From IMG/VR virus record IMGVR_UViG_3300013288_000004, positions 191,360 through 255,359 of that record: DNA of 64,000 bases. The stretch is one strand, 5' to 3'. Under the pieces are notes generated by a model. It had not been told where the DNA came from, searched no databases, and saw only the letters and a program-made list of their open reading frames with translations. Position numbers and translations under genes: made by a program. Positions 1,209 to 26,976 of the stretch are shown piece after piece. This stretch comes from a virus. Taxonomy: Duplodnaviria; Heunggongvirae; Uroviricota; Caudoviricetes. Position 1 is the first letter of the stretch. The number at the start of each line of letters is the position of its first letter.

Positions 1209-1994
1209 ATGACTAAAAAATTAACAAACGAAGAATTTATAACAAAAGCAAACAAAATTCATAATAATAAATATGATTACAATAAAACAATATATGACGG
1301 CTATTATAACAAAATTATAATAGTATGTCCAATACACGGGGATTTTACACAAAAGCCAGCAGATCATTTAGGAGATGCTAACGGATGTCAAAAATGTAAA
1401 AGTGTTTCACTTGCAACACAGCAAACTTTAACAAGAGAAGAAGTTATAAACAGATGTAATAGAGTACATAATTTTAAATATTTGTATGACGATATGGTGT
1501 ATATCAAAAATAATATAAAAATCATTATAACTTGTAAAGAGCATGGGAAGTTTCTTATGGTCCCAGCGAAACATTTTATGGGCAGAGGATGTCCAATATG
1601 TTCAAAATCATTCTCCAGTGGAGAACTAAAAGTTAAACAGATATTAGAAGAATTACATATAGATTATAAAATGAATAAACAATTTCCGGGGTTGATAGGA
1701 GATTACAGACCCCTAAAATACGATTTTTATTTGGAACAATTACATCTAATAATAGAATATGATGGTGAATTTCATTCTAACTATAAATGCGCTTTTGATG
1801 CCAAAAATTTATCAGAAAATGAAATGTACAGACGTTTCTTAAAAATACGACGATACGATCTCATCAAAAATAAATATTGCGAGGATAATAATATTCCATT
1901 ATTACGTATTTCATATAAAAAATATTCTTATAAATTGATTCGCAAAGAAATTATAAATTTTTTAAATTTAAACGGGACTACTTATTACACTTAA
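1209..1994 (+). mobile_element. Free-standing homing endonuclease (CxxH-GCxxC Zn-binding repeats + Vsr/PD-(D/E)xK-like nuclease)
   Basis: Repeats CPIHGDF..HLGDANGCQKC and CKEHGKF..HFMGRGCPIC; C-terminal KYDFYL..LIIEYDGEFH..DLIKNKYC..PLLRI. Sits antisense inside ligA. Confidence 0.85.
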
Positions 1995-3089
1995 TATTTG
2001 TGGTATAACCGATCCAGCTTTTGCAACAATTACTTTAGCACCCGGCATTATTTTATTGTCATATATAAATCTTGCGTTGTGACCGGTAGCGTATGTCACA
2101 GTTGACCCCTCCATCTCTGTTGGTACAATTTTAACCTTTGGTTTAAGTAAACCCCCCTTAGACAGTTCCCAGAGGACATCGACAACCGAGACTTCGCGAT
2201 AAGCATCCTTTGAAAGATTCTTATATTTGACAGAATGTTCTGGATTTAGCGATGACGAATTCGACTGCAAAGAAATATTCTTGTACGATTCTGTAGTAAG
2301 AACCAAACCGTCCAGCATATATTCTGATTTTTCTTTTCGATCTGCAACCATCTTACCAAGATCGGCATCGTTGAGTTTGTCAACCCCGACCATTTGATAT
2401 GCAACTACGGAAAATCCGTACTTCTTGAGCAATTCCAACTCTTCGGACTTCTTAAGATTGCTTACACCATCGACAATTTCATATGCGACCACTTCGAAAT
2501 CATTTAACACATCTTCTGTTGGGATTTTTCTATTAAGAATACCGGCGACCATGTTACGGCTGTTCTTGAATTCGTTTGCATACTTATATTCAAAGATAGA
2601 GTTCTTAATGATCACTTCGGCTCTGACTACAAGATCATCAGGATTTAAATAACCAACATCTGCCGTTTTTGGTACATTTGGAATAAGCTGAATATTTCTT
2701 GTAATGTCCGCACCCTCTGAACCATTACCCCTAGAGAATGCCTGTGCAAACTTACCATCACGATAAACTAATAGACACGAACACCCATCTAGTTTATCAG
2801 ACGAGATAACTTCTTTAACATTATATTTTTCAATCCAATTGAGAATATCATTATCATCATAAACTTGATTCAATGAACCCATTGGATATGGTAACGGGAC
2901 TTTCCCACCACGAACATCCGAGCCGACACCAGTGAAATACTGATTGGATGGATCTAGCAACTTTAATTTGTTTCTAAGATTCTCATATTTGTCATCGTCA
3001 AGAACGTCATCAGTGACTGAGGTATTGAAATATAATTCATCGTATTTCTTTAATTCTACTACTAATTGTGCAATGACATCCATAAACAT
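1968..3089 (-). CDS. ligA: NAD-dependent DNA ligase, N-terminal part (adenylation + OB domains)
   Basis: SDKLDG active-site motif, SRGNGSEGADIT, RNMVAG, LDGLV, and OB-fold end ATGHN...AKAGSVIPQI. Confidence 0.93.
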   Translation of the reverse strand: MFMDVIAQLVVELKKYDELYFNTSVTDDVLDDDKYENLRNKLKLLDPSNQYFTGVGSDVRGGKVPLPYPMGSLNQVYDDNDILNWIEKYNVKEVISSDKLDGCSCLLVYRDGKFAQAFSRGNGSEGADITRNIQLIPNVPKTADVGYLNPDDLVVRAEVIIKNSIFEYKYANEFKNSRNMVAGILNRKIPTEDVLNDFEVVAYEIVDGVSNLKKSEELELLKKYGFSVVAYQMVGVDKLNDADLGKMVADRKEKSEYMLDGLVLTTESYKNISLQSNSSSLNPEHSVKYKNLSKDAYREVSVVDVLWELSKGGLLKPKVKIVPTEMEGSTVTYATGHNARFIYDNKIMPGAKVIVAKAGSVIPQILSVISSPV

Positions 3090-3131
3090 TCCTATGATTT
3101 TTGTGTATCATAGCAGATGTTGGTGCACCGT

Positions 3132-3764
3132 TCAATCTCTTGCAGCTTGCACGAAATCCTTAACTTTTATTGGATCAAAGTCGTAGAATGAACTTGATAT
3201 TCCAGTTGCTACCAATGCATGTGTTATATAATTCTTATAACTATGAATGTTCTCTGGTGTCAATCCGCTTGCTAGTGCTAGCTTGGGAAAGTGTTCCAAA
3301 TTCTGCATTTTTTCTAATGATGCAGCAACTCCGGTTGCGCTGCCAGATGTTGTTGGTATTCTATTTTTGCTAAGAATTGTTTCGCCAGTGGCTATAAAAT
3401 CCACATCTTTCTTTTGATATTTAAAAGCAAATGACTCATATATTTCCATGCTCTTTTTGTTCGTAAGAAGTTCAATCGGTTGATCATATCTCTCTGGTAT
3501 TAGATTATCTGTCCAAATCATATCAAAACATTCATAATGATTCACTAATCCAACCATGAATTCAGTAAAAAGAAAATTTATGCCTATTTTCTTTTCTGGG
3601 TAATTTTCTTTCAACTCTCTACAGACCGATGGTAAAATTGATTCAGCGTCTGGATTGTCCATGTTTATTAAAAAGACGCCATCGCATCCATTCCCAAAGA
3701 CGATTTCAGCATTCTTAAACGCTGCATCTTTTGTTGAGAAATGTATTACTGGTAATATTATCAT
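3132..3764 (-). CDS. BtpA/SgcQ-like TIM-barrel protein
   Basis: LPVIH start, DGVFLIN, IGINFL, TTSGSATG, LASGLTPENI, ALVATG. Confidence 0.65.
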   Translation of the reverse strand: MIILPVIHFSTKDAAFKNAEIVFGNGCDGVFLINMDNPDAESILPSVCRELKENYPEKKIGINFLFTEFMVGLVNHYECFDMIWTDNLIPERYDQPIELLTNKKSMEIYESFAFKYQKKDVDFIATGETILSKNRIPTTSGSATGVAASLEKMQNLEHFPKLALASGLTPENIHSYKNYITHALVATGISSSFYDFDPIKVKDFVQAARD

Positions 3765-4258
3765 AAAGATTTTGCGAAATTATCGTTTATTGGTTCGTCG
3801 TACTCTGATTCTATCCCAATGATACCAAGCTTGTCTAGTAAACTCTGGTCTGGCACTTCTCCATCATAATCATATGATAATGTTATATGTGGTTTATATT
3901 CTGGGAACTTTTCTTCAACATCATATTGTCCGACGATGTCAGAATGTCTTGCATGTAAATCATCGCAGTCTAATTCCATAACCAAACATTTCGATCCGGG
4001 ATTTTGGGAATTGTCAAACAAAGTGAAACCTTTTGGTTTAGCCTTGTAACCTGCTGGATTTTTCGCGGTGAATCCATCTAAATTCTTTTTATCTGAATAC
4101 ACCAATGTGGAATGTAATTTATCTTGCGGGATTGGATTCTTTAACTTTAATTCTGCCATCAAATCCATTATTCTCTTTTTAGTATCATCATCAAATCTAA
4201 CACCTACATATGTCCCTGCTGGCATTTCTTTGTTATAGTAAATTTCTGATAGTTTCAT
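3761..4258 (-). CDS. acb1: T4 57B/Acb1-like 2H phosphoesterase (anti-CBASS)
   Basis: GTYVGVRF, NPIPQDKLHSTLVYS, LVMELD..LHARH, YKPHITLSYD and EYDEPI are co-linear with the T4 57B sequence as I recall it. Confidence 0.85.
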   Translation of the reverse strand: MKLSEIYYNKEMPAGTYVGVRFDDDTKKRIMDLMAELKLKNPIPQDKLHSTLVYSDKKNLDGFTAKNPAGYKAKPKGFTLFDNSQNPGSKCLVMELDCDDLHARHSDIVGQYDVEEKFPEYKPHITLSYDYDGEVPDQSLLDKLGIIGIESEYDEPINDNFAKSL

Positions 4259-4548
4259 GGTTTGTCCAATTCTGAATTATCTTTATTTATTGGATGAAGA
4301 GCTTCCTTGAAATAATCTGCGGCTTGATTCAACACTTCATAGATTGGTTTGTCTAAAGCGTAATCACCAATTTGTACACTTTTTATTTGTACAATGCCTT
4401 CATATTTAAAAGATTTACTTTTATGAACTGCCACGGATAACATTAATTTACCGACATCATCTGTCAATGACACTACAACATCATCACAATTTAACTTTTT
4501 CTTAAAGTAGTTAAATATCTTTTTTATATTTTTTGTTCTTGTTTTCAT
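4255..4548 (-). CDS. hypothetical protein
   Basis: ORF with ATGA-type overlaps at both ends. Confidence 0.65.
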   Translation of the reverse strand: MKTRTKNIKKIFNYFKKKLNCDDVVVSLTDDVGKLMLSVAVHKSKSFKYEGIVQIKSVQIGDYALDKPIYEVLNQAADYFKEALHPINKDNSELDKP

Positions 4549-4742
4549 AAATCGTCCACTGTAGTTATATGATATAAATCTTCATGTCGTACCCATACAT
4601 TAAATCCATCAGTATCCTGTGAATTTATAGGTCTGATTTCCATCAGTATATCATCTTTTGACGAATCTCGCTTGTTTGAGCGTATGGCCTGCCTGCCTGT
4701 AGATTCCCACTCTTTTCCATTATAAATGAATTTTGACATCAC
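4545..4742 (-). CDS. hypothetical protein
   Basis: 65 aa ORF coupled to the downstream gene. Confidence 0.6.
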   Translation of the reverse strand: MMSKFIYNGKEWESTGRQAIRSNKRDSSKDDILMEIRPINSQDTDGFNVWVRHEDLYHITTVDDL

Positions 4743-17269: not shown

Positions 17270-17557
17270 TTAAAATTCTATTCCATCTACATCATTGCAA
17301 ATCTGTATAAGATAATCACCGTGGCATGCTTTTGGTTTGCAGAAACAAACTAGATTTTTACCTTTCAAATCCTGTATAATTTCATGTTTCAATTCTGGAT
17401 TGCTTTCAACATAATCAATATATTTTTCGATTACCTGTCCTCTTGTACCGTCTACGCCACGAATGAAGGGGTTCCCATAATATGAACCCCTTCCAATATA
17501 CACACAATCGTTTGGCCTATTTTCGTCAGATATGTTATAAACTTTTGGCATCATCAC
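17270..17557 (-). CDS. DUF4326-family protein
   Basis: VYIGRGSYYGNPF..LKGKNLVCFCKPKACHGDYL. Confidence 0.85.
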   Translation of the reverse strand: MMMPKVYNISDENRPNDCVYIGRGSYYGNPFIRGVDGTRGQVIEKYIDYVESNPELKHEIIQDLKGKNLVCFCKPKACHGDYLIQICNDVDGIEF

Positions 17558-18966
17558 TTTTTAATAAAACTATTCGCCCTATTACGAATAATATCAAATG
17601 TTTCAAAATATGATTCTATTGGACCATTTTCATACGCTAATACCATTTCATCATGTTGATAATCTTCAATATCTTCAATCCTAGTTGTATGATAGCCTGA
17701 ATCATCCGTGACGAGTGTCAATTCACCACGTTTAGACGCTTTAGATAAATCAGTCTTGGGATTTTTAAACACATCACGCTGGACTCCATTAACAGTAATA
17801 CTTGAACATTTCATAGCATACTTATAAGAATCCCTATCTACTTTTTGTAATGTTCCAGCGCCCATACCGAATGCTAAATTTGACATACTCAAACCTTCTT
17901 TTAAAAGATTTTCTATGATCAATGGGATTGAATTTATAGTAATACCATCACCTTGAATAACTCTCACATGATTAGGCAACACTTTATAACCTTTAGAATT
18001 AATAGTATATCCTTCTAGTTCCATCAATCGTTTAATCACTTCGATAGGCATAGTTAGAGGATTCCCTGAATCTGGACGTAATACTATTGTGGCGCCTTTA
18101 GCTTTAACAGCACTCAAAAGCTTAGGATTCTTATTCCACATATCTATTGCAGCGAATGTATCATAACTATCAATTACGCAAGCAAACATGGCACCGGGTT
18201 TAGCATATTTGTTGACCATGTTAATATATGCATCTTCTTCGCAGTCTTCACCCCAACTGGTCATTGTAGAATGCTCTGATGCGGAAATTGAAAAACCACA
18301 AACGTCTGAATAATAGTTTTCTATAGCACATGTGATACCAGCTAACGTATCAGTGCCCTTGAAATTAACAAGGTGTGCACAATTACCAATTGATGCAGAT
18401 TCTAAAGAGCTAACGCCACGAAAACCGAAACAATGCAACTTAAAATCAATTTCTGAATCAGGGTCGTCAGATGATTCTACCAGAGCATCGTAAATGTACT
18501 GTTTAGCTAAAAATGAATTACTGGCTACAGTACTACCATACCAGAAGTTTTGCAACAATGCGGTTTCCAAGAAAGATGTAAGCCAGAAACATTCTGGATC
18601 TGTATTCTCAATTGTCAGCAATACATTATTTGTCGGAATAACTGAGCCTTCCCTCACGGAGCGAATCTTCACTGGTAGAACCCCATTGTGTTTTTCTACA
18701 ATGTACTCCCAACCTGTTCGATTAAACTCTAGCCCGTGTGCAGTCAAGAGCGTGGCAGCTTGCTCAATATCTTCTTTGGTAACTGGTTTAATCAGATAAT
18801 TTTTAATGAAATACTGCAATCCGAAAACCATTACACTATGCGTAATAGTACTACCACGGCTTTCTATATAAGAAAAGACTTTTTGTGTGTTTTTTGGATA
18901 CTGTTGGTAGTGTGTGTGCTTATAACTATCAGTGAAAAGTATTAAATTGTTTTTTAGATTTGTCAT
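17554..18966 (-). CDS. nadV: Nicotinamide phosphoribosyltransferase (start revised to MTNLK)
   Basis: TDSYKHTH..QYP, GLQYFIK, HCFGFRG, HLVNFKGTDT, ASEHS, DSYD, IVLRPDSG, IQGDG, FGMGAG. Confidence 0.95.
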   Translation of the reverse strand: MTNLKNNLILFTDSYKHTHYQQYPKNTQKVFSYIESRGSTITHSVMVFGLQYFIKNYLIKPVTKEDIEQAATLLTAHGLEFNRTGWEYIVEKHNGVLPVKIRSVREGSVIPTNNVLLTIENTDPECFWLTSFLETALLQNFWYGSTVASNSFLAKQYIYDALVESSDDPDSEIDFKLHCFGFRGVSSLESASIGNCAHLVNFKGTDTLAGITCAIENYYSDVCGFSISASEHSTMTSWGEDCEEDAYINMVNKYAKPGAMFACVIDSYDTFAAIDMWNKNPKLLSAVKAKGATIVLRPDSGNPLTMPIEVIKRLMELEGYTINSKGYKVLPNHVRVIQGDGITINSIPLIIENLLKEGLSMSNLAFGMGAGTLQKVDRDSYKYAMKCSSITVNGVQRDVFKNPKTDLSKASKRGELTLVTDDSGYHTTRIEDIEDYQHDEMVLAYENGPIESYFETFDIIRNRANSFIKK

Positions 18967-18986
18967 GACCATAACTCCTATGTGTC
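18967..18986 (-). promoter_or_regulatory. Conserved SD-containing hairpin/operator, copy 1 (nadV)
   Basis: GACACATAGGAGTTATGGTC immediately before the ATG. Confidence 0.7.
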
Positions 18987-19019
18987 GTGTTTGTACAATA
19001 CTATTTATGCTTCTGATTG

Positions 19020-19568
19020 TCAATCATGTAGATCATACTTCTCAATTTTATCTTTTGGTCCAATTACTTCTTTACTTATAATTTTATTCATGTTATAAAG
19101 AACCATCATCTTTTCACCCCAACCAAATGGAGAACTGACCATCGTATAGTCTACTCCATTTTTAACTAAAAATTCTCTAAGATCGCTAACATTTGCAGTC
19201 CTAAGACCATCATAGTTTATGATAATTGTTATCATTCTATCAGCTACAACTGAGCCATTCTGTTCATATTTACTAATAGCTTCTAGAACTTCTTTGCGTT
19301 TTTTAACTATACAATACGTATTAACAAACTGTGCTATATCTGGTAAAGGAATAAATGAATTATTACTATCGCTACCTTGTTCAACCGTTATTCTATAGAA
19401 TTTTCTATTACCTTTAGCGTATTTCTTAGCAGTACCATAATGGGTTGTTAAATATAATCCCGGACCATACTCCCACTTTCCAGAACGAGTCTGGATCGGT
19501 AGGTCTAGATTCCCACCATGCCAGAATTGCATGGGTTCATTTGATTCGAAAATATTTTCCAGTTTCAT
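19020..19568 (-). CDS. ADP-ribosyltransferase-like protein (H-Y-E type)
   Basis: FWHGG..GPGLYLTT..AKKYA..GEKMMVLYN. Confidence 0.55.
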   Translation of the reverse strand: MKLENIFESNEPMQFWHGGNLDLPIQTRSGKWEYGPGLYLTTHYGTAKKYAKGNRKFYRITVEQGSDSNNSFIPLPDIAQFVNTYCIVKKRKEVLEAISKYEQNGSVVADRMITIIINYDGLRTANVSDLREFLVKNGVDYTMVSSPFGWGEKMMVLYNMNKIISKEVIGPKDKIEKYDLHD

Positions 19569-19589
19569 AAAATTCACAAATTATGTAAA

Positions 19590-19597
19590 TATTTATA
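19590..19597 (-). promoter_or_regulatory. T4-type late promoter
   Basis: TATAAATA directly upstream of the ART-like gene. Confidence 0.65.
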
Positions 19598-19901
19598 ACA
19601 CTCCCTGTTCAACAATAGATGATACATCTTGGGTACGATTTTCAAATCTGCGTCTCTGTTTTTCTACGTATTCGCTTAAAGTCTGTTTTGCCTCTAATAA
19701 AGAGGAGAAAGTGTATTCATAATCATTTCTAAACATCTCAATAGTGCCATGTATGTCCAACGTATACCAAGGACAACCCCATGAAGATATATCTTTTATG
19801 TACACTTTAAAATATGTACGCGATACGTGCCCACTATGGATGTTTGTAACATTATGCTGTTTTATCTCGTATTTGAAAACTGGTCGCTTTGGCTTAGACA
19901 T
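19593..19901 (-). CDS. hypothetical protein
   Basis: ORF with AAAGG SD. Confidence 0.65.
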   Translation of the reverse strand: MSKPKRPVFKYEIKQHNVTNIHSGHVSRTYFKVYIKDISSWGCPWYTLDIHGTIEMFRNDYEYTFSSLLEAKQTLSEYVEKQRRRFENRTQDVSSIVEQGVL

Positions 19902-19961
19902 GAATTATACCTTTTTCGATGGTAATAACGTTTTTATTAAACAACTTTAAAATGAATGAGA

Positions 19962-20339
19962 TCATAAGTAAACAATTCCATTTTCTTCTATGATTTCTGT
20001 TTTAACTATTTGTCTTTCGATACACTCAGATAAAGCTTTAAGGATGGGGACGAGTTCACTAACGGTGAACACATAATTATCATAGTCGTTAATCATCTCA
20101 CATGCTGGAATAAAATCCTCTAAGCGTGGGTAGTACGTATGGACTGGGGTTGGACCATCATACTTAGAATATTTTCCGATAAGTACAGATTTCCAATCTT
20201 CACAATCGGGCTTACTAACGTGCATAACACATAAGGGTAACCTACGATCACCACCGAATTCAATTCTTATAAATTTATATAATTTATATTTGAATAGTTC
20301 TTTACTGGTATGCACAACTGTCACATTCTCATCAATCAT
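19962..20339 (-). CDS. hypothetical protein
   Basis: ORF overlapping the HD gene stop (ATGA). Confidence 0.65.
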   Translation of the reverse strand: MIDENVTVVHTSKELFKYKLYKFIRIEFGGDRRLPLCVMHVSKPDCEDWKSVLIGKYSKYDGPTPVHTYYPRLEDFIPACEMINDYDNYVFTVSELVPILKALSECIERQIVKTEIIEENGIVYL

Positions 20340-20974
20340 GACAATAACTCCAAATAATCATTAGCTTCTTTAATCTTTTCATCGACTATATTCTGGTTGA
20401 ACTTCTGCTTACCCCATTCTGAGATAAATTTGAGATTTGTAAAGAAACCGGCTTGCATCTTGAATACATCAATAGGGCTTACGCACATTTCAGAGGAAAG
20501 TCCAAAAATGATTTCCTGAACCCACACTGGGCTAAGACCTTGACTCAAATCAGCATCCCTTAAAATTGCTTCTTCAAGGCTCAAATGATCCGCCGAAACA
20601 ATATGTGGGAACTGCGTTGTCCTGATCATGGAAGCGATCAATTCCAAATCTTGTTCGTCATATGGATGAATGTTCTTTGTTAATCCTCTAATTGAGATCT
20701 CTATATTCAGATCATCATTACCGCTTCGACCCGGATGATCAAAATCGTGAAACATGGCGGCGATCAAAAGATTTCGCATTTGTTTAGGTGACATAATATC
20801 TTTGTAGAACACACACGCATCATAACACAACCATGTCACATGAAACATATGACGAAAGTTGTGGTACGGATTCTTTAAATTTTTTGCAGAAGTCATGACG
20901 ACCTGAAAATAATGTTTCAGGTCGCCTTCATAGACATCATCAATATTCTTGATTATTTCTGGTAAATTTGCCAT
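20336..20974 (-). CDS. HD-domain phosphohydrolase, class-I cyclic nucleotide PDE-like
   Basis: NPYHNFRH..V, LLIAAMFHDFDHPG, ILRDADL. Confidence 0.75.
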   Translation of the reverse strand: MANLPEIIKNIDDVYEGDLKHYFQVVMTSAKNLKNPYHNFRHMFHVTWLCYDACVFYKDIMSPKQMRNLLIAAMFHDFDHPGRSGNDDLNIEISIRGLTKNIHPYDEQDLELIASMIRTTQFPHIVSADHLSLEEAILRDADLSQGLSPVWVQEIIFGLSSEMCVSPIDVFKMQAGFFTNLKFISEWGKQKFNQNIVDEKIKEANDYLELLS

Positions 20975-21568
20975 TTACATTCCTTTTAATTTATTTGGTA
21001 CAATTTCTTCATGCATCCAATGTGTGCCGGTTGTTACGTGGTTCTTGCGAACGAACTTTGCTACAGACTGTGCGAAATCTTCATAAGAAAATGCATCAGC
21101 AAGTCTTACAACATAACCTTCCATAGAACCATCGTCAACAAACAGCGACTTAATGTAACCTTCACTGAAAATACCATCATACAACACTTTCACCGGAGTA
21201 ACACCGAGCAACTGAAACCATTCTACAGTCTCATCCCATGAAAGGCAAACGTTGTTATCATCCCACATGGAGAAACCATAAAAATATGATTCCAGATCAT
21301 TATATTCAATGGAGTGTTTGGCGTATAAATTTTCACCACATATCCTAAAATTCTCTGGGATATTGTGCTGAAATTCAGCAGCAAACTTCTTTAACCAATC
21401 TCTTGATGGATGATTGGCAGAGTCTAAAGAACGTGCATGTGTACGATCATTATAAATTGAACAATTATGAACAAGAATGCCGTTAGCGAAAAAATTGTTA
21501 TTCTTCTTAACAGAAATATCATATTTTTTCGATGTGTTATCTATCTTTTTTATTGATTTTATCTTCAT
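20975..21568 (-). CDS. RNA ligase C-terminal part preceded by a 35 aa C-intein
   Basis: KYDISV..NNFFANGILVHN/C, then HARSLDS..HPSRDW..ICGENLYAKHSI..EGYVVR..AKFVR. Confidence 0.9.
   Translation of the reverse strand: MKIKSIKKIDNTSKKYDISVKKNNNFFANGILVHNCSIYNDRTHARSLDSANHPSRDWLKKFAAEFQHNIPENFRICGENLYAKHSIEYNDLESYFYGFSMWDDNNVCLSWDETVEWFQLLGVTPVKVLYDGIFSEGYIKSLFVDDGSMEGYVVRLADAFSYEDFAQSVAKFVRKNHVTTGTHWMHEEIVPNKLKGM
21464..21568 (-). mobile_element. Split intein, C-terminal half (IntC)
   Basis: Blocks F and G ending HN, followed by a Cys as the +1 nucleophile. Confidence 0.92.
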
Positions 21569-22577
21569 AGTGATTTACTATTATTGATGAGACTATAGCA
21601 TACAATTCTTCGTCTGTTATGTCAACCATATCAGATTCCCATATATAATATACCCTATAGTTGTATTTTTCGGCTAGTTCCTTTTTGACTATATCTTTTT
21701 CCCATATTTCTTTTGCTGTTTTTTTACATTTTTGATATGAAAAAACTAAATCGTCTTCTTTATACATTTTGGGGTTTGCATGAAAATAATCACCATTAAC
21801 TTCTATAATTATATTAGTCTGATCAATTAGAAAATCATAACTACGATTTCGTATCCATTTTTGTCGAGTATGTGCAACATTATTTGCTACCAAAATATTA
21901 CTTACCCTATCTTCTAGTTTAGACTTTCCAAATTTGCTGTCTAACCTTGTTCTTTTTTGTATTATTGCGGCTTGTTGTTCTTTTGACAATCCCTTCCAAT
22001 AATTACTAGTACTTTCACCGAGTCTTTTACCTATTAATTTTCTATACTCAAGAGTCTGAGAAGCCCACCATTTGGTAAAATTTCCGTATCTATTTGGTAA
22101 ACTCTTAACTCCATATTTCGTAATCATTAAATCTGGCAGCATTTTTTTAAACTTTTCATCTTTAAATATGTTAGACACGCCATAATTTTTCATAAATGTT
22201 GCAGCTACTTTATCCTTTACAATTTGTGATTTAGCTGGATTATCTACACCATATTTTTTTAAATTAGTTTGCTTTCTTTGTTCTTTTATGACTTCACATT
22301 GTAAAGATTCTTTATGAGACCTACTTTCTATTGAATGATACTTCAATAGAAAGTAGAAAATACTAGAACCCATAAAATATAATTCAGTATATATTTTATA
22401 TGCTGATATTTTATCTTCAATATACATTTTATGTAACAAATCTTTTGATATAAAAAGATTATTATATTTTAATAATTTTATTCTCTTTTCATTTTTACTT
22501 ATATCATCTTTATCACAAAAATAAACATGTCTGCCATTTTGTGGGTTAATTTCTTTATTACATATATAACATTTCAT
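21537..22577 (-). mobile_element. Free-standing Vsr/DUF559-like homing endonuclease
   Basis: KQTNLKKYGVDN-type repeats; SKLE..YDFLI..IIIEVNGDYFHANP..D..K..LA..YRVYYIWESD. Confidence 0.88.
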
Positions 22578-22598
22578 TCAAATACTCCGTTTAAAGAG

Positions 22599-22606
22599 TA
22601 TTTATC
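22599..22606 (-). promoter_or_regulatory. Late-type promoter for the endonuclease/IntC genes
   Basis: GATAAATA between the IntN gene and the HEG; GGAG SD follows. Confidence 0.5.
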
Positions 22607-22617
22607 AAAAAAGATGG

Positions 22618-22920
22618 CTATAGCAATTTTTTTACTTGATCACTTTCTAATATATCTTTAACACGTCTATAACAATTTAGATTGTCTACCCAAATATAAT
22701 GTTGTTCTGTAACTATCAAAATGGTTCCGTCTTCTAATTCTATTTCATACCACTGCGAATCGTTATCGTGAACTGATACAGCATAAACCTCTTGCATTTC
22801 TATAACATCAGAAACCATGTCATATGATTTAACTAATAAACCGACTAATTTATTGTCTACAATTTCTTTTATTGTTTTTGGGCCTAACGAAGTTTCGAGA
22901 ATGGTATCTCCGTCAAGACA
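22618..22920 (-). mobile_element. Split intein, N-terminal half (IntN)
   Basis: Starts CLDGDTILET, contains TEQH, ends at a stop codon with no endonuclease domain. Confidence 0.92.
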
Positions 22921-23067
22921 GTTTTCCCCGTCATACTTCTCAGAAACTACTACACGCTTACCAATAAAATTATCAAGACTTTTCAACATCTTGTCATCGT
23001 TGGTCATACCTTCGCTCCAGCTAAAATGAAGCGTGCGCGGATATTTTTTATATTTTGAGGCGTTCAT
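22618..23067 (-). CDS. RNA ligase N-terminal part (49 aa) fused to a 100 aa N-intein
   Basis: KYPRTLHFSWS..EKYDGEN, then CLDGDT..(block A)..LIVTEQHYIW (block B). Confidence 0.9.
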   Translation of the reverse strand: MNASKYKKYPRTLHFSWSEGMTNDDKMLKSLDNFIGKRVVVSEKYDGENCLDGDTILETSLGPKTIKEIVDNKLVGLLVKSYDMVSDVIEMQEVYAVSVHDNDSQWYEIELEDGTILIVTEQHYIWVDNLNCYRRVKDILESDQVKKLL

Positions 23068-23121
23068 GGCACATGCTCTAAAGATTAAGTAAAGCTATGA
23101 TATCAACCATTTCTTCCTGTG

Positions 23122-23517
23122 TCAAAGAGTTTTTTCACCAAATACAAAAATATCTACTGTAATAAATTGTAAGTCACTAACTAACTTGGTATCTTCGTCA
23201 ACAAATCCGACTGACCTCATCGCACCCTTGATAGGGAGCTTATCATTTTTACATTTTTGTGCAATTTTTCCCATCGGGGTATCTAGTAACTTAATTGTGG
23301 CCATCAATCTATCACCATCCATTCTTGCTGATACAACGGTATGAGATACATTTTCCACAGTAATGAGGGAATCTTTACCTATACCAAATTCTCCAAATGG
23401 AGGAAGCTCTGATTCGTTAATGTTATTACATACTTTGGTTAACTCTTCTAATGGAAATATGCGACCAGCACTGTCTGGTGTATTAGCCTGTTTCAATAAC
23501 ACTTCAATTGTATTCAT
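23122..23517 (-). CDS. Degenerate T4 gp21-like prohead protease paralog
   Basis: GRIFPLEEL, GEF, VSH, IKLLDTPMGKI follow the family pattern, but the GELxH His and GVSSRG Ser appear lost. Confidence 0.55.
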   Translation of the reverse strand: MNTIEVLLKQANTPDSAGRIFPLEELTKVCNNINESELPPFGEFGIGKDSLITVENVSHTVVSARMDGDRLMATIKLLDTPMGKIAQKCKNDKLPIKGAMRSVGFVDEDTKLVSDLQFITVDIFVFGEKTL

Positions 23518-23726
23518 ATAATCTCTCCAAAAATTAACAATTTTTCCACAATAAGATAAAATGCATATGGCGGAAAGAATATACTAAAGAATGTTGACCA
23601 AAATCCTTGTGCAATAACAATACCAGCTAACCATAAAAAGGACAGTGAGTATGTAACAATTAATACTAATACTTCACTTACAAGTTTTGTTATTGCTACA
23701 ACAGCGTTATTCATATGTAAATCCAT
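23514..23726 (-). CDS. Small membrane protein
   Basis: Two hydrophobic segments. Confidence 0.65.
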   Translation of the reverse strand: MDLHMNNAVVAITKLVSEVLVLIVTYSLSFLWLAGIVIAQGFWSTFFSIFFPPYAFYLIVEKLLIFGEII

Positions 23727-23748
23727 TTGTTTTTACTCTTAAGTCAAA

Positions 23749-23777
23749 ATTATATCGAGTTTGAACAACATTGTCAA
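23749..23777 (-). promoter_or_regulatory. Consensus sigma70 promoter
   Basis: Perfect TTGACA-N17-TATAAT heading the minus-strand run that contains the split-intein ligase. Confidence 0.85.
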
Positions 23778-23832
23778 TAATTTTTGGTACTTTCGCCGCA
23801 CATATGACTAAATATAAGAAAAAGGTAAAATT

Positions 23833-24678
23833 ATGAATTATTACGTATACGTCTACTTAGACACAAGAAAACCGGGTGAATATGTTTATGGCGACCTTCA
23901 ATTTAATTATGAACCATTTTATATTGGTAAAGGTAAAGGAAGTAGAGACAAACAACATTTACAAGAATATCACCTAAAGCATTCAAATAATAAAATGAAA
24001 AACGGAATTATTAATAAAATTATTAATTCTGGACTACAGCCAATGTTTTTGAGAATGAAAGAAAATTTGAATAATCAACAATCTATTGACATTGAAAAGC
24101 ATTTCATCAAATTGATAGGGAGAAGAAACTTACACAAAGGCCCATTAGCTAACTTAACTGATGGTGGAGAAGGAAATGAAGGGTGGATCGTTTCTAATGA
24201 AACAAAAGAGCTTTGGAGTAAACAGCGTAAAGGTAAAAAACAGACGGAAGCGCAATATAAAGCTAATTGTTCACGCGGACCTATGACAGAAGAACATAGA
24301 AGAAAAATATCAGAATCACAAAAGGGAAAAACAAGATTAACACCAGAACAATATAAAGAGAACGGATTAAAGCAGCGTGGGAAAAAAATGTCACAAGAAA
24401 CAAAAGATAAAATGAGCAAGCAGCGAAAAGGTAAAAAACAGACGGAAGCGCAATATAAAGCTAATTGCAACAGAATTGCAACGCGAATCCCTTTTCCATC
24501 TTATAATGATTTAAAAATATTATTGGTGGAGCACTCTATAAAATCATTGCCACAATACAAAAATTTTGTTAAACAAATGGTTCATATGAAATTACCAATA
24601 CAACTAAAACAATGTTATGAACTTAGGAACGAATGGATCTCATATGATGATATTTTTGGAAGAGAAACGGTAGCTTAA
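23833..24678 (+). mobile_element. GIY-YIG homing endonuclease with NUMOD3 repeats
   Basis: YYVYVYLD..PFYIGKGKGSR..E..I..L.N.TDGGEG; MTEEHRRKISESQKGK. Confidence 0.88.
24223..24467 (+). repeat. 47 bp direct repeat (24223-24269, 24421-24467), one mismatch
   Basis: cagcg[t/a]aaaggtaaaaaacagacggaagcgcaatataaagctaattg; encodes QRKGKKQTEAQYKANC twice. Confidence 0.9.
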
Positions 24679-24691
24679 GCTACCGTTTCTC
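24662..24691. terminator. Perfect 30 bp palindrome at a convergent junction
   Basis: gagaaacggtagctt|aagctaccgtttctc spans both stop codons. Confidence 0.8.
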
Positions 24692-25316
24692 ACTCACCAT
24701 ATTCCTCCCAAGAATCTTTAAACATTTCTTTTAATCTATCTAGATATTGCATTGTCTTAATCTTGTACATAGGTACACCACCAGCAAAGTTACCTTTACG
24801 TTCCGTACCTTTACAGATAACACCTTCTACTACATCATACTTTCCTTCGCGAACATCTTGAACCAATTCATAGTTCAATTCTGTAGTTGCAAAAACTCTA
24901 GGAATTTCTGTGACAGATCCAATACGATTAATGAAATTTTCTGGACCCATAAATGATTTGATCTTTGGATCATAAACATCAAATACAGTTAACTTGTGCG
25001 GTTCATCATCAACATGTCTACCGGCAAATGAGTTATCACCATGATATTCAGAAAATACAATTATGTTATCGGCCTTAGTTTTATCTGTAAAATATTTTGA
25101 CAGTGCGTCTGCACGTGTTTCATTAAAAAGTTTTACAATATTCCCCCAATAATCAGTTGACTCATCAACCAACTGTGTGCGCGTGCCAAATAGATTGAAC
25201 CCGTGTTTACGGGTCCATTTGGCTCTAAAATTAGAGCCGTCTATTTTTTCAAATACAAAAACCATCTGACCAAACTTGGCTTTCTTTGTATTTTTCATTG
25301 ATGGATATTCAAACAT
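24690..25316 (-). CDS. Second RNA ligase-like nucleotidyltransferase
   Basis: FEKIDGSNF, FGTR, FSEYHG, FDV, EGVICKG, KIKT. Confidence 0.8.
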   Translation of the reverse strand: MFEYPSMKNTKKAKFGQMVFVFEKIDGSNFRAKWTRKHGFNLFGTRTQLVDESTDYWGNIVKLFNETRADALSKYFTDKTKADNIIVFSEYHGDNSFAGRHVDDEPHKLTVFDVYDPKIKSFMGPENFINRIGSVTEIPRVFATTELNYELVQDVREGKYDVVEGVICKGTERKGNFAGGVPMYKIKTMQYLDRLKEMFKDSWEEYGE

Positions 25317-25533
25317 TTTTTAATTTCCAATTGTCATCTAATTTTACTTTTTGTTCTCTAATCAATTTGAATATCAAAAACTTCATATCAGTGGAATCAA
25401 ATATATTAATATTCCAACCATCTTCTTTATAAGATTTCAGGACATCTAAAAGAGATAGCGGGTGCCCTCTTCTTAATTTACTCAATAACCATTCTTCTGT
25501 TGCTTTTTCTTGATTGTTCACGGAAATTCTCAA
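25309..25533 (-). CDS. hypothetical protein (possible winged helix)
   Basis: 74 aa ORF coupled to both neighbours. Confidence 0.55.
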   Translation of the reverse strand: MRISVNNQEKATEEWLLSKLRRGHPLSLLDVLKSYKEDGWNINIFDSTDMKFLIFKLIREQKVKLDDNWKLKNV

Positions 25534-25877
25534 TTTCTCGTTTCTATCTTACCAGAATTTGCAATTTCTACAAGTGCATCGACATTTACATGTGGATTGA
25601 ATATTCGGGCATTCTTGTAATAAAAGTTTTCACTAGCCTCATGCTCTACAGCAGCTAGAACCGCTTTGTAAGCCGTTCTGACGATCTCTGACGTTACCAT
25701 GTGGTAAGATAGTTGCCACTTCCTGCAATACTGTCTCTCGACGTTTCCTGAGTCATTACAAGCACCCATAAACTGTATCTGTAAATATGGTACATCATTT
25801 TTTTCTTTTACAATGAATTCCCAATTTGAGAATTTTATTTGTTGTACGATTTGTTTAATTTGTTCTAAATTTTTCAT
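25530..25877 (-). CDS. Conserved-looking phage protein of unknown function (start revised to MKNLEQ)
   Basis: RKWQLSYHM..SEIVRTAYKAV..EHEASENF..IFNPH; carries the operator hairpin. Confidence 0.75.
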   Translation of the reverse strand: MKNLEQIKQIVQQIKFSNWEFIVKEKNDVPYLQIQFMGACNDSGNVERQYCRKWQLSYHMVTSEIVRTAYKAVLAAVEHEASENFYYKNARIFNPHVNVDALVEIANSGKIETRN

Positions 25878-25897
25878 GACCATAACTCCTATGTGTC
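25878..25897 (-). promoter_or_regulatory. Conserved SD-containing hairpin/operator, copy 2
   Basis: GACACATAGGAGTTATGGTC, identical to copy 1. Confidence 0.7.
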
Positions 25898-25908
25898 AAA
25901 TTTTTATT

Positions 25909-26976
25909 TTATAATCTATTCAAGAAATACAACACTAGGTCCATATGATCCTCGAATAACTTATTTCTCATGTTTCTAATTTCCGCGAAAGAAAACCAAT
26001 GCGCGTCAGAGGCATCGTCCAAACCGCTGACACGCGGGAGGTCATTATTGTCATCCAGCTTAATGCAATAAGCACTGGTAATGGTTCGTCCATTCTTAAT
26101 GAAGACTCTCCCACGTAATGAACGATCAGGATGGTCAAAAATTTTATGATCTACAATTGATCCTCTTAATACTTTTTCTGGAACCTTTATGCCAGTCTCT
26201 TCTCTGAGTTCCCTAATCATGGCATCTTCAAGAGTTTCGTCGGGGTGGACGTGCCCGCCCGGAATAGCCCAGAGAGATTTTCCCGGATTGTTCTTACGTT
26301 TAATTAAAAGAACATGGCCAGATTGTACTACCACCGCATCAACAGTAATGAAATTTAATGAGTATTCTTTAGGGAATGACAAAAACTTCTTGTCATAATT
26401 TACTGCGTCCTCATATTCAGAGCATAATGGATGAAATTCTGCTTTTGTTTGAAACTTCTCTAAGAAGTGATAAACGCCAACAGGCACAGCAGCTTTGACG
26501 AATTGCAGATGGCCAGAGAAATATAATTCTCTAACTTTAGTCGCATCAATATGCTTACCACCAGTAGAATCTAAAATCGCTGTTTCTATATAGTCCCACT
26601 GTTTAAAGTAGTTTATATACGATTCCGTCTTTTGATCTTTCTTTGCACCAAGCAGACAAACCGACTTATCACCGTTTGTAATTTCGTCAACACTGTTCAA
26701 AAGAGAAGCTGCCCAATTGGCGTTATTGTACAATTGGTCTTCAACATAGGTGAAAATAATTTTGTCACATTCTTCACCAGTTAGACATGACTGTATCATT
26801 TCAATACGTTCATTGACTGTGAATGGTGATTTTATTGTTCGTGGAGAATTTGCAGAACCAAGAACTATGATAAGTTTATGGCTTGTTTTTAGCGCATCTC
26901 GTACTGTAACTAAATGGCCTAAATGAAATGGTTGGAACCTTCCGATGTATACAGCATAATTATATGTATAAGGCAT
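25909..26976 (-). CDS. nadM: Bifunctional NMN adenylyltransferase / ADP-ribose pyrophosphatase (NadM-Nudix)
   Basis: YIGRFQPFHLGH; DATKVRE; Nudix box PGGHVHPDETLEDAMIRELREETGI. Confidence 0.95.
   Translation of the reverse strand: MPYTYNYAVYIGRFQPFHLGHLVTVRDALKTSHKLIIVLGSANSPRTIKSPFTVNERIEMIQSCLTGEECDKIIFTYVEDQLYNNANWAASLLNSVDEITNGDKSVCLLGAKKDQKTESYINYFKQWDYIETAILDSTGGKHIDATKVRELYFSGHLQFVKAAVPVGVYHFLEKFQTKAEFHPLCSEYEDAVNYDKKFLSFPKEYSLNFITVDAVVVQSGHVLLIKRKNNPGKSLWAIPGGHVHPDETLEDAMIRELREETGIKVPEKVLRGSIVDHKIFDHPDRSLRGRVFIKNGRTITSAYCIKLDDNNDLPRVSGLDDASDAHWFSFAEIRNMRNKLFEDHMDLVLYFLNRL

Follow-up and report, generated by a model that had tools for sequence, protein, structure and literature searches.

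The stretch of DNA analysed here (the window) comprises 64,000 nucleotides (nt) and corresponds to positions 191,360 to 255,359 of the IMG/VR virus record IMGVR_UViG_3300013288_000004, the 306,759-bp genome of an uncultured phage from bioreactor sludge, which has direct terminal repeats and was judged complete. At window positions 20975-23067, the sequence and the listing of its open reading frames (ORFs) reveal three close-packed ORFs on the minus strand, in which we recognize an RNA ligase gene that has very probably been fractured by a naturally split intein. ORF A (23067..22618, 149 amino acids, aa) is the N-half gene and carries the N-terminal part of the ligase (N-extein) followed by the N-terminal part of the intein (IntN), ORF B (22577..21537, 346 aa) is a free-standing endonuclease gene, and ORF C (21568..20975, 197 aa) is the C-half gene, carrying the C-terminal part of the intein (IntC) followed by the remainder of the ligase (C-extein). 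A spacer of 40 nt separates ORF A from ORF B, and the 3' end of the endonuclease gene overlaps the start of the IntC gene by 32 nt, out of frame (21537..21568, minus strand).

The 49-aa N-extein (22921..23067, assigned from its PHROG match and sequence) reads ...VVVSEKYDGEN at its end, thus terminating in motif I of the ligase with the adenylated lysine, and is directly followed by the 100-aa IntN and a stop codon (22618..22920), a fragment that begins CLDGDT, contains TEQH and continues to ...QVKKLL. The 35-aa IntC (21464..21568) comprises block F (YDISV...NFFANG) and block G (ILVHN), ends in FFANGILVHN and passes into the C-extein, which starts with CSIYNDRTHARSLDS... and occupies, together with its stop codon, positions 20975..21463 (162 aa; Pfam PF09414, expectation value E = 3.4e-24). 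An earlier note on this DNA had described gene 1 as a 49-aa N-extein ending in EKYDGEN plus a 100-aa IntN, and gene 2 as a 35-aa IntC plus a Cys and a 162-aa C-extein; its coordinates, lengths and junction are all correct, the Cys being counted in the 162 aa, and the sum of 49 and 162 gives the 211 aa that it had predicted for the joined ligase.

The set of residues required of a class-1 intein is complete, including Cys1, T-x-x-H, the block F Asp, the terminal His-Asn and Cys+1. Intein position 1 is Cys50 of the N-half, directly after EKYDGEN, and this column is invariant in 150 relatives; block B corresponds to T71-E-Q-H74 of IntN, its Thr being at least 90% conserved in the alignment of IntN relatives. 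The Pfam model Intein_splicing matches both halves (E = 7.6e-4 and 2.6e-7), each of them under the gathering cut-off, as expected since each is only half a domain, and for the NCBIfam model TIGR01443 (intein C-terminal region) the score of 36.5 bits exceeds the cut-off of 15.6. The fragments have also rather different charges, IntN being acidic (9 K/R and 20 D/E, net -11) and IntC basic (8 K/R and 2 D/E, net +6).

We have investigated the association of the two fragments by complex prediction, using residues 44-149 of the N-half for IntN, and IntC plus ten extein residues (1-45). The pair attains an interface score (ipSAE) of 0.79, versus 0.01 for the best of three controls; in the benchmark, 51 of 78 solved complexes attained this mark, as did 2 of 108 mismatched pairs. 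Contact agreement among the three runs is 91% or more and the predicted local distance difference test (pLDDT) of the partner is 73 or higher, so that the two fragments are predicted to assemble into one Hint domain. In respect to sequence, this intein lies far from any solved intein: the best intein matches in the PDB by phmmer are PI-PkoII for IntN (E = 0.019, with DnaE inteins at E = 0.54 or worse) and the Spl DnaX mini-intein for IntC (E = 0.0058, with NrdJ-1 at E = 0.64). A PDB sequence search, which does not cover InBase, returned no near-identical split intein at the same host site. Such distance would be compatible with orthogonality towards known inteins, without showing it.

The conservation of the different parts was analyzed by codon-by-codon Nei-Gojobori comparison of the window with a relative (85% and 82% identical) that has the same layout and is found in two contigs of one sample, L004 and L009. 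The resulting ratios of nonsynonymous to synonymous divergence (dN/dS), which are rough values because dS is around 1 and thus near saturation, amount to 0.08 for the N-extein and 0.11 for the C-extein, to 0.14 and 0.04 for the two halves of the endonuclease (all versus L004/L009), to 0.10 for IntN (versus L004) and to 0 for IntC (versus L009), in which there are 11 synonymous and no nonsynonymous differences. The direction is unambiguous, and points to purifying selection on intein halves, exteins and endonuclease alike; that all parts are maintained argues against a dead gene.

A distinct line of evidence results from the distribution of split and intact ligase alleles. A word-indexed search with ORF A yielded 14 metagenomic N-half relatives of 129-159 aa, all of which are split at K-x-D-G-E-N↓C (the arrow marks the insertion point), in agreement with the previous claim that the insertion directly follows the adenylation motif. 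The corresponding C-half search returned 3,947 homologues; among the best 120, 48-50 begin with an IntC, the junction being HN↓C in 41 and HN↓S in 7, and the remainder are uninterrupted. Considering 70 intact alleles, the residue after KxDGEN is Thr in 54, Ser in 10 and another in 6, and the uninterrupted alleles of close relatives read KxDGE(N/T)↓T; since intact alleles have mostly Thr at this position, the Cys nucleophile is a property of the occupied alleles. The split is far beyond chance, because it is repeated in dozens of independent metagenomic loci. Indeed, besides L004 and L009, the full three-gene layout is also found in L002/L003, with an N-half that is 42% identical and genes for 144 aa, for a DUF7487/Vsr protein of 349 aa and for 206 aa.

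Occupied and empty alleles are found side by side among closely related exteins. The N-terminus of the intact ligase P0016 is 88% identical to the N-extein of the window, and this empty allele is located in L001 (6001-6651), a relative that shares many neighbouring genes with the window, arranged in another order. The nearest extein relative, P0024, is likewise intact (90% C-extein identity), and the next, P0023, is split. Between the split P0027 and the intact P0051 there are three differences in 163 residues (98% identity), of which two fall at junction positions +1 and +3 (CSI versus FSG). In a tree of 118 C-exteins, the split or intact state needs at least 12 changes, 4 of which are forced by well-supported branches. 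This interspersion is what would be expected from recent homing or precise loss. In the reads of four DNA runs we have found no joint marking a co-existing intein-less allele, a result which is uninformative either way given the patchy cover.

The product of ORF B is a free-standing EDxHD (Vsr-like) homing endonuclease. It is composed of an N-terminal CCHC zinc knuckle, a helical DUF7487 region (Pfam, E = 1e-9) and a C-terminal EDxHD nuclease domain, and it matches homing endonuclease families of PHROG, having as distant relatives the Hef endonucleases of Campylobacter phages and ORFs annotated as 'VSR endonuclease' in Aeromonas phages. In an alignment of 53 homologues, residues C3, D248, E259, H266, D295, W313 and E314 are invariant, and C6, H17, C21 and D263 are at least 90% conserved, which gives the N-terminal CCHC knuckle and the E...D-x-x-H...D signature. 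The AlphaFold (AF2) model has a pLDDT of 90.6, and Foldseek matches its C-terminal domain to the catalytic domain of I-Bth0305I (PDB 3R3P) with a probability of 1.00, a template modelling (TM) score of 0.79 by target and a root-mean-square deviation of 3.1-3.6, and matches this domain also to Escherichia coli Vsr (1CW0/1VSR). The gene has its own ATG and a GGAG ribosome-binding site (22585-22588), which is buried in a 10-bp RNA hairpin within the 40-nt spacer (22579..22604, minus strand). The hairpin over GGAG is kept in the relative L004, and L002 has a different hairpin; it is plausible that the hairpin of the window throttles endonuclease translation. The 5' arm of the latter shares sequence with GATAAATA, which departs from the T4-type late promoter box at one position. 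The overlap between the endonuclease and C-half genes is 44 nt in the distant relative L002. DUF7487 endonucleases of these phages also live outside inteins: in L001 (9836-10744) there is a free-standing one of 302 aa, on the opposite strand, after the NAMPT gene.

Regarding the host enzyme, the split gene encodes, to judge from its motifs and family matches, a small stand-alone ATP-type RNA ligase of the PF09414 family. PHROG RNA-ligase families match residues 2-51 of ORF A and cover residues 34-195 of ORF C, and the C-extein contains the motifs ICGENLY, FYGFS, EGYVVR and AKFVRK; no NCBIfam model matches the ligase. In 41 intact homologues, motif I is invariant (K44-x-D46-G47-E48), as are G92-E93-N94 (motif III), F110 and F113 (IIIa), E164-G165-x-V167-x-R169 (IV) and K185-x-V187-R188 (V). 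An AF2 model of the intact allele P0016 (pLDDT 91.6) superimposes on the adenylyltransferase domains of Trypanosoma brucei REL1, Naegleria NgrRnl, archaeal Rnl3 and T4 Rnl2 and Rnl1 with TM scores of about 0.5. The ligase is a bare catalytic domain of 211-216 aa. A second, uninterrupted PF09414 paralogue of 208 aa is encoded on the minus strand at 24690-25316, and in its motif I (FEKIDGSN) the following residue is Phe, leaving it without a nucleophile at the equivalent site; L001 likewise has both ligases.

The evidence above leads us to propose, with high confidence, that the locus is a genuine fractured gene, in which a mobile cassette formed by IntN, the EDxHD/Vsr-like endonuclease gene and IntC sits inside motif I of a small RNA ligase, between Asn49 and residue +1. 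The two ligase pieces are made as separate proteins, and according to this model their acidic IntN and basic IntC would associate electrostatically and fold into one Hint domain; trans-splicing would then produce EKYDGEN-CSIYNDR... and restore the adenylation site, so that the ligase would work only after splicing. The endonuclease, whose translation is probably throttled by the hairpin over its ribosome-binding site, would cut intein-less ligase alleles of co-infecting relatives, and repair after the cut would copy the whole cassette into the empty allele. We infer trans-splicing, homing and ligase activity from sequence; the sporadic occurrence of occupied and empty alleles among near-identical exteins lends indirect support to the predicted cleavage of intein-less alleles. 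The earlier view of a naturally split intein of the fractured-gene type is thus borne out by the splicing residues, the purifying selection, the predicted co-folding, the empty alleles and the EDxHD endonuclease located between the halves. A number of points weigh against this model. Since complexes of split inteins (Npu DnaE and others) have been solved, the favourable co-folding score may reflect mere likeness to these and not splicing; the near-saturated dS values blunt the selection analysis; there is no clear Shine-Dalgarno sequence upstream of the IntC gene; and a T4-type late promoter in the endonuclease leader is unproven, as the box is GATAAATA and not the consensus, and exact copies of TATAAATA are no more frequent in the window than expected (11 versus 12.6). 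Also, as the genome has a second PF09414 ligase, the split ligase need not be essential.

The presence of this paralogue, 1.6 kb away, would in fact suit a scenario in which the halves never splice, either because the gene is a remnant killed by endonuclease invasion whose function is covered by the second ligase, or because the intein halves serve as a non-covalent dimerisation handle. We consider it very unlikely, as the exteins and the intein halves are all under strong purifying selection, and the nucleophiles and the TxxH and HN residues are kept in around 50 divergent loci; moreover, occupied alleles have Cys or Ser at +1, versus 11 of the 70 intact alleles, most of which have Thr, a difference that is sensible only if the splicing chemistry is used. 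It might be argued as well that false stops, arising from assembly or sequencing, have broken one continuous cis-splicing intein with an in-frame endonuclease, given that many inteins have internal endonuclease domains and that one of 150 related clusters (P0254) does continue for 422 aa past Cys1. Such an artefact is hardly credible: the other 149 clusters stop around 100 aa after Cys1, the endonuclease has its own start, ribosome-binding site and spacer and shares 32 nt with the IntC gene in another frame, independent assemblies from different samples show these stops and starts as well, and the N-half region is matched exactly by contigs from two other runs.

A distinct question is whether the intein has been correctly recognized and the host enzyme is other than an RNA-repair ligase, namely a nucleotidyltransferase linked to nicotinamide adenine dinucleotide (NAD) or ADP-ribose, acting for example on a NAD-derived or ADP-ribosylated substrate. 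The ligase gene lies among NAD-salvage genes in four widely differing phage contexts, comprising the window (17554-26976), L001, L009 and the distant L002. These neighbours are NAMPT, NMNAT-Nudix and DUF4326 genes, to which L002 adds a nicotinamide mononucleotide (NMN) transporter, a NadR-like protein, nicotinamidase and NAD synthase, and the enzyme itself is an adenylyltransferase domain of 211 aa that lacks any nucleic-acid-binding appendage. The neighbourhood hints at a functional tie of the ligase to NAD metabolism. However, the Pfam, PHROG and fold matches all correspond to RNA ligases, although the latter have TM scores of only about 0.5, and a gene neighbourhood is merely suggestive; we thus regard an NAD-linked enzyme as unlikely, and retain the fractured RNA ligase as the preferred interpretation. 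Directly downstream of the split ligase there is a gene for an HD-domain protein with a PDEase_I signature (20336-20974, minus strand), which in L001 (2574-3212) adjoins the other ligase; the protein could be an RNA end-healing phosphoesterase partner rather than a cyclic-nucleotide enzyme.

The occurrence of related inteins outside this ligase subfamily was analyzed by searching 1.84 billion representative proteins with the 100-aa IntN on its own and without filtering by length. This yielded 524 relatives when E was allowed to reach 1e-3, and 140 when the limit was 1e-10. As already noted, 149 of the best 150 end around 100 aa after Cys1 and are therefore split. Among these 150 clusters, the insertion site is KxDG↓ in 69, KxHG↓ in 36 and KxEG↓ in 10, is located one or two residues further on, in the register of the window, in 12, and reads (K)TDExR↓ in 11 and RG(D/N)G↓ in 3. 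At least 127 of the 150 are therefore inserted in nucleotidyltransferase motif I of RNA or DNA ligases, either at K-x-(D/H/E)-G itself or at most two residues away. The N-exteins correspond mostly to PHA02142-type RNA ligases with an OB domain in 61 clusters, to the T4 Rnl1 type in 18 and to NAD-dependent DNA ligases in 3. When ten N-exteins were scanned separately, the five tested with the (K)TDExR↓ site were all of the PHA02142 type, and the two tested with RG(D/N)G↓ were both NAD-dependent DNA ligases; proteins with one or other of these sites include P0150, P0161, P0165 and P0181, and the two motifs represent additional ligase insertion sites of the clade.

The same cassette of IntN, endonuclease and IntC is found in L011, at KVHG↓...HN↓TSF, which is like motif I of T4 Rnl2, and in L012, at EKIDG↓...HN↓SLIQ of a PF09511 ligase of the Rnl1 type. 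In the latter (1244-2373) the endonuclease is broken into a DUF7487 ORF of 204 aa and a Vsr ORF of 140 aa and both intein halves look intact, which fits endonuclease decay after fixation. In the IntN tree the site classes are intermixed and that of the window needs at least 4 changes on well-supported branches; having only 99 columns, the tree cannot order the host switches. These results make it reasonably probable, if less firmly so than the fractured gene itself, that the window element is one tip of a very large and as yet undescribed radiation of split inteins with EDxHD endonucleases, specialised on motif I (K-x-D/H/E-G) and repeatedly jumping between unrelated ligase families, including stand-alone PF09414, PHA02142/Rnl2, T4 Rnl1 and NAD-dependent DNA ligases. 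The element is ordinary for its clade, whose hundreds of split inteins directed at the ligase adenylation motif are together the more valuable lead.

An IntN-like match in the Streptococcus phage vB_SagM-GXN1 (PQ819873.1, L014) was rejected as a member, as it belongs to a different split intein in an unannotated 868-aa ORF that is not a ligase. In this locus (1756-4717) an IntC-like segment opens the ORF, an in-frame fusion of an IntN to a Vsr-like endonuclease domain comes further on, and the next ORF, of 124 aa, begins with another IntC; the arrangement is suggestive of a structural or packaging gene that was fractured twice and missed by the annotators. Lak phages were also discarded: their N- and C-extein matches, 1.4 kb apart, suggested an intein, and upon reading TAG as Gln motif I turned out to be continuous (GENCTVY). 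In Prevotella phage Lak-A1 (L013, MK250016.1, 2489-4319, TAG as Gln), motif I reads GEN-C, with a Cys at the position equivalent to +1, and the ligase is interrupted further downstream by a 420-aa TnpB-like ORF and not by an intein. In L001 (6944-8089), a TnpB/IS605 OrfB gene is located directly after the intact ligase.

As to the phage itself, identical DNA is present in bioreactor-sludge and wastewater metagenomes, the sequencing runs listed with it including none of RNA, and no near-identical DNA to the locus, or to 20 kb of the window, was found among deposited phages, in a search from which the record of the window itself may have been masked; the neighbouring genes have their best protein matches in jumbo phages of Stenotrophomonas, Xanthomonas and Ralstonia. 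Around 30 nt 5' of the N-half gene there is a candidate TG-extended sigma-70-like promoter, TTGACA-17-TATCAT (23097..23125, minus strand, 11 of 12 matches). Sigma-70-like sites in the region are not in excess (30 found versus 26.4 expected from shuffles), and since they are as frequent in shuffled sequence the candidate is weak. Another such site, TTGACA-17-TATGCT, lies 5' of the IntC gene and is kept in L009, a conservation which is uninformative because the site is inside coding sequence. An Rfam scan of the locus detected no intron or other RNA family. Elsewhere in the phage genome, a full-length Hint/intein domain is found inside an 887-aa ORF (C1:173341-174423, 65.6 bits), and a weaker match to an intein C-terminal region occurs outside the window, in a 655-aa ORF (C1:35910-36245). 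The window also encodes, on the strand opposite to the split ligase, a GIY-YIG/NUMOD3 free-standing homing endonuclease (23833-24678, plus strand), which is flanked by the second ligase and by an ORF of 131 aa (23122-23517); the latter aligns with no more than a portion of a head-maturation-protease PHROG.

Naturally split inteins such as Npu DnaE, gp41-1 and NrdJ-1 are standard tools of protein engineering, for which any new pair that is remote from those already known is a candidate orthogonal tool. The pair described here has the canonical size of 100 and 35 aa, a strong charge complementarity and the native junction GEN/CSI, and its host would be a phage ligase of the RNA-repair type, the active site of which is formed only upon splicing. 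Beyond this element, the locus points to a clade, with its 140 clusters at E up to 1e-10, that targets the ligase adenylation motif across several enzyme families. If the proposed radiation is real, it would offer hundreds of divergent and possibly mutually orthogonal trans-splicing pairs, as well as a natural system for ectopic intein transfer via a shared active-site motif. The arrangement itself is textbook, and the surprise for the specialist is moderate.

Comparison with known systems places this locus among several partial counterparts. The fragments of DnaE split inteins have around 102 and 36 aa, the IntN being acidic and the IntC basic. The likeness in size noted before thus holds, and the element resembles cyanobacterial Npu and Ssp DnaE also in its charge polarity and in being class 1, with Cys1 and Cys+1; unlike it, the DnaE halves are encoded at distant loci with no endonuclease between them, and the sequence similarity is marginal. 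Among 50,697 deposited phage genomes, the nearest IntN matches, with around 35% identity, are the NrdA split inteins of the Campylobacter phage CP220/CPt10 type, whose Hef endonucleases are distant homologues of ORF B, but whose host gene is a ribonucleotide reductase; in none of these genomes is this intein found in a ligase. The RNA-ligase cis-inteins of actinophages, with RtcB-like and 'tRNA-splicing ligase' hosts, are a different matter.

The EDxHD endonuclease family was first noticed in the fractured-gene setting (PMC3239194; PMC2677866), and its prototype, I-Bth0305I, has an N-terminal DNA-binding region fused to a C-terminal nuclease (PMC3239194; PDB 3R3P). ORF B has in common with it the E...D-x-x-H...D residues, the nuclease fold and the order of the DNA-binding and nuclease regions. 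The two differ in that I-Bth0305I is encoded in a recA group I intron and ORF B is free-standing between intein halves, in the CCHC zinc knuckle and helical DUF7487 region of ORF B, and in sequence, with around 20% identity to 3R3P.

The closest precedent is that of the fractured genes with split inteins and free-standing homing endonucleases described by Dassa, London, Stoddard, Schueler-Furman and Pietrokovski in 2009 (PMC2677866), with gp41 (gp41-1/-8), NrdJ-1, IMPDH-1, NrdA-2, DnaE, one Felix-01-like DNA ligase, a terminase and a protein of unknown function as hosts. Of the 16 endonuclease leaders in that study, 15 are reported to have a hairpin, which is often accompanied by a TATAAATA box, and the 3' end of the endonuclease is described as overlapping the downstream gene. 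The locus under study agrees with those genes in the succession of host-N plus IntN, a Vsr-like endonuclease gene on the same strand, and IntC plus host-C, a layout repeated in L002/L003, L011 and L012, as well as in the hairpin 5' of the endonuclease start, the 3' overlap and the phage or metagenomic origin. Unlike them, it has as host a PF09414 RNA ligase, outside the eight enzyme types of that paper, an insertion site (K-x-D-G-E-N↓C) inside motif I, and an intein sequence that is not close to the characterised ones. As to the novelty proposed earlier, we have found, in the library searched, no paper with this host, or indeed one linking split inteins to nucleotidyltransferase-type (ATP-type) RNA ligases, and that part of the claim stands together with the lack of a near-identical PDB entry; the intein is nevertheless not a rarity, as it belongs to a very large clade. 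The layout has been known since 2009, and what is new are the host gene and the insertion site: the window element is set apart by its host subfamily, the minimal stand-alone PF09414 ligases, and by its KxDGEN↓C register.

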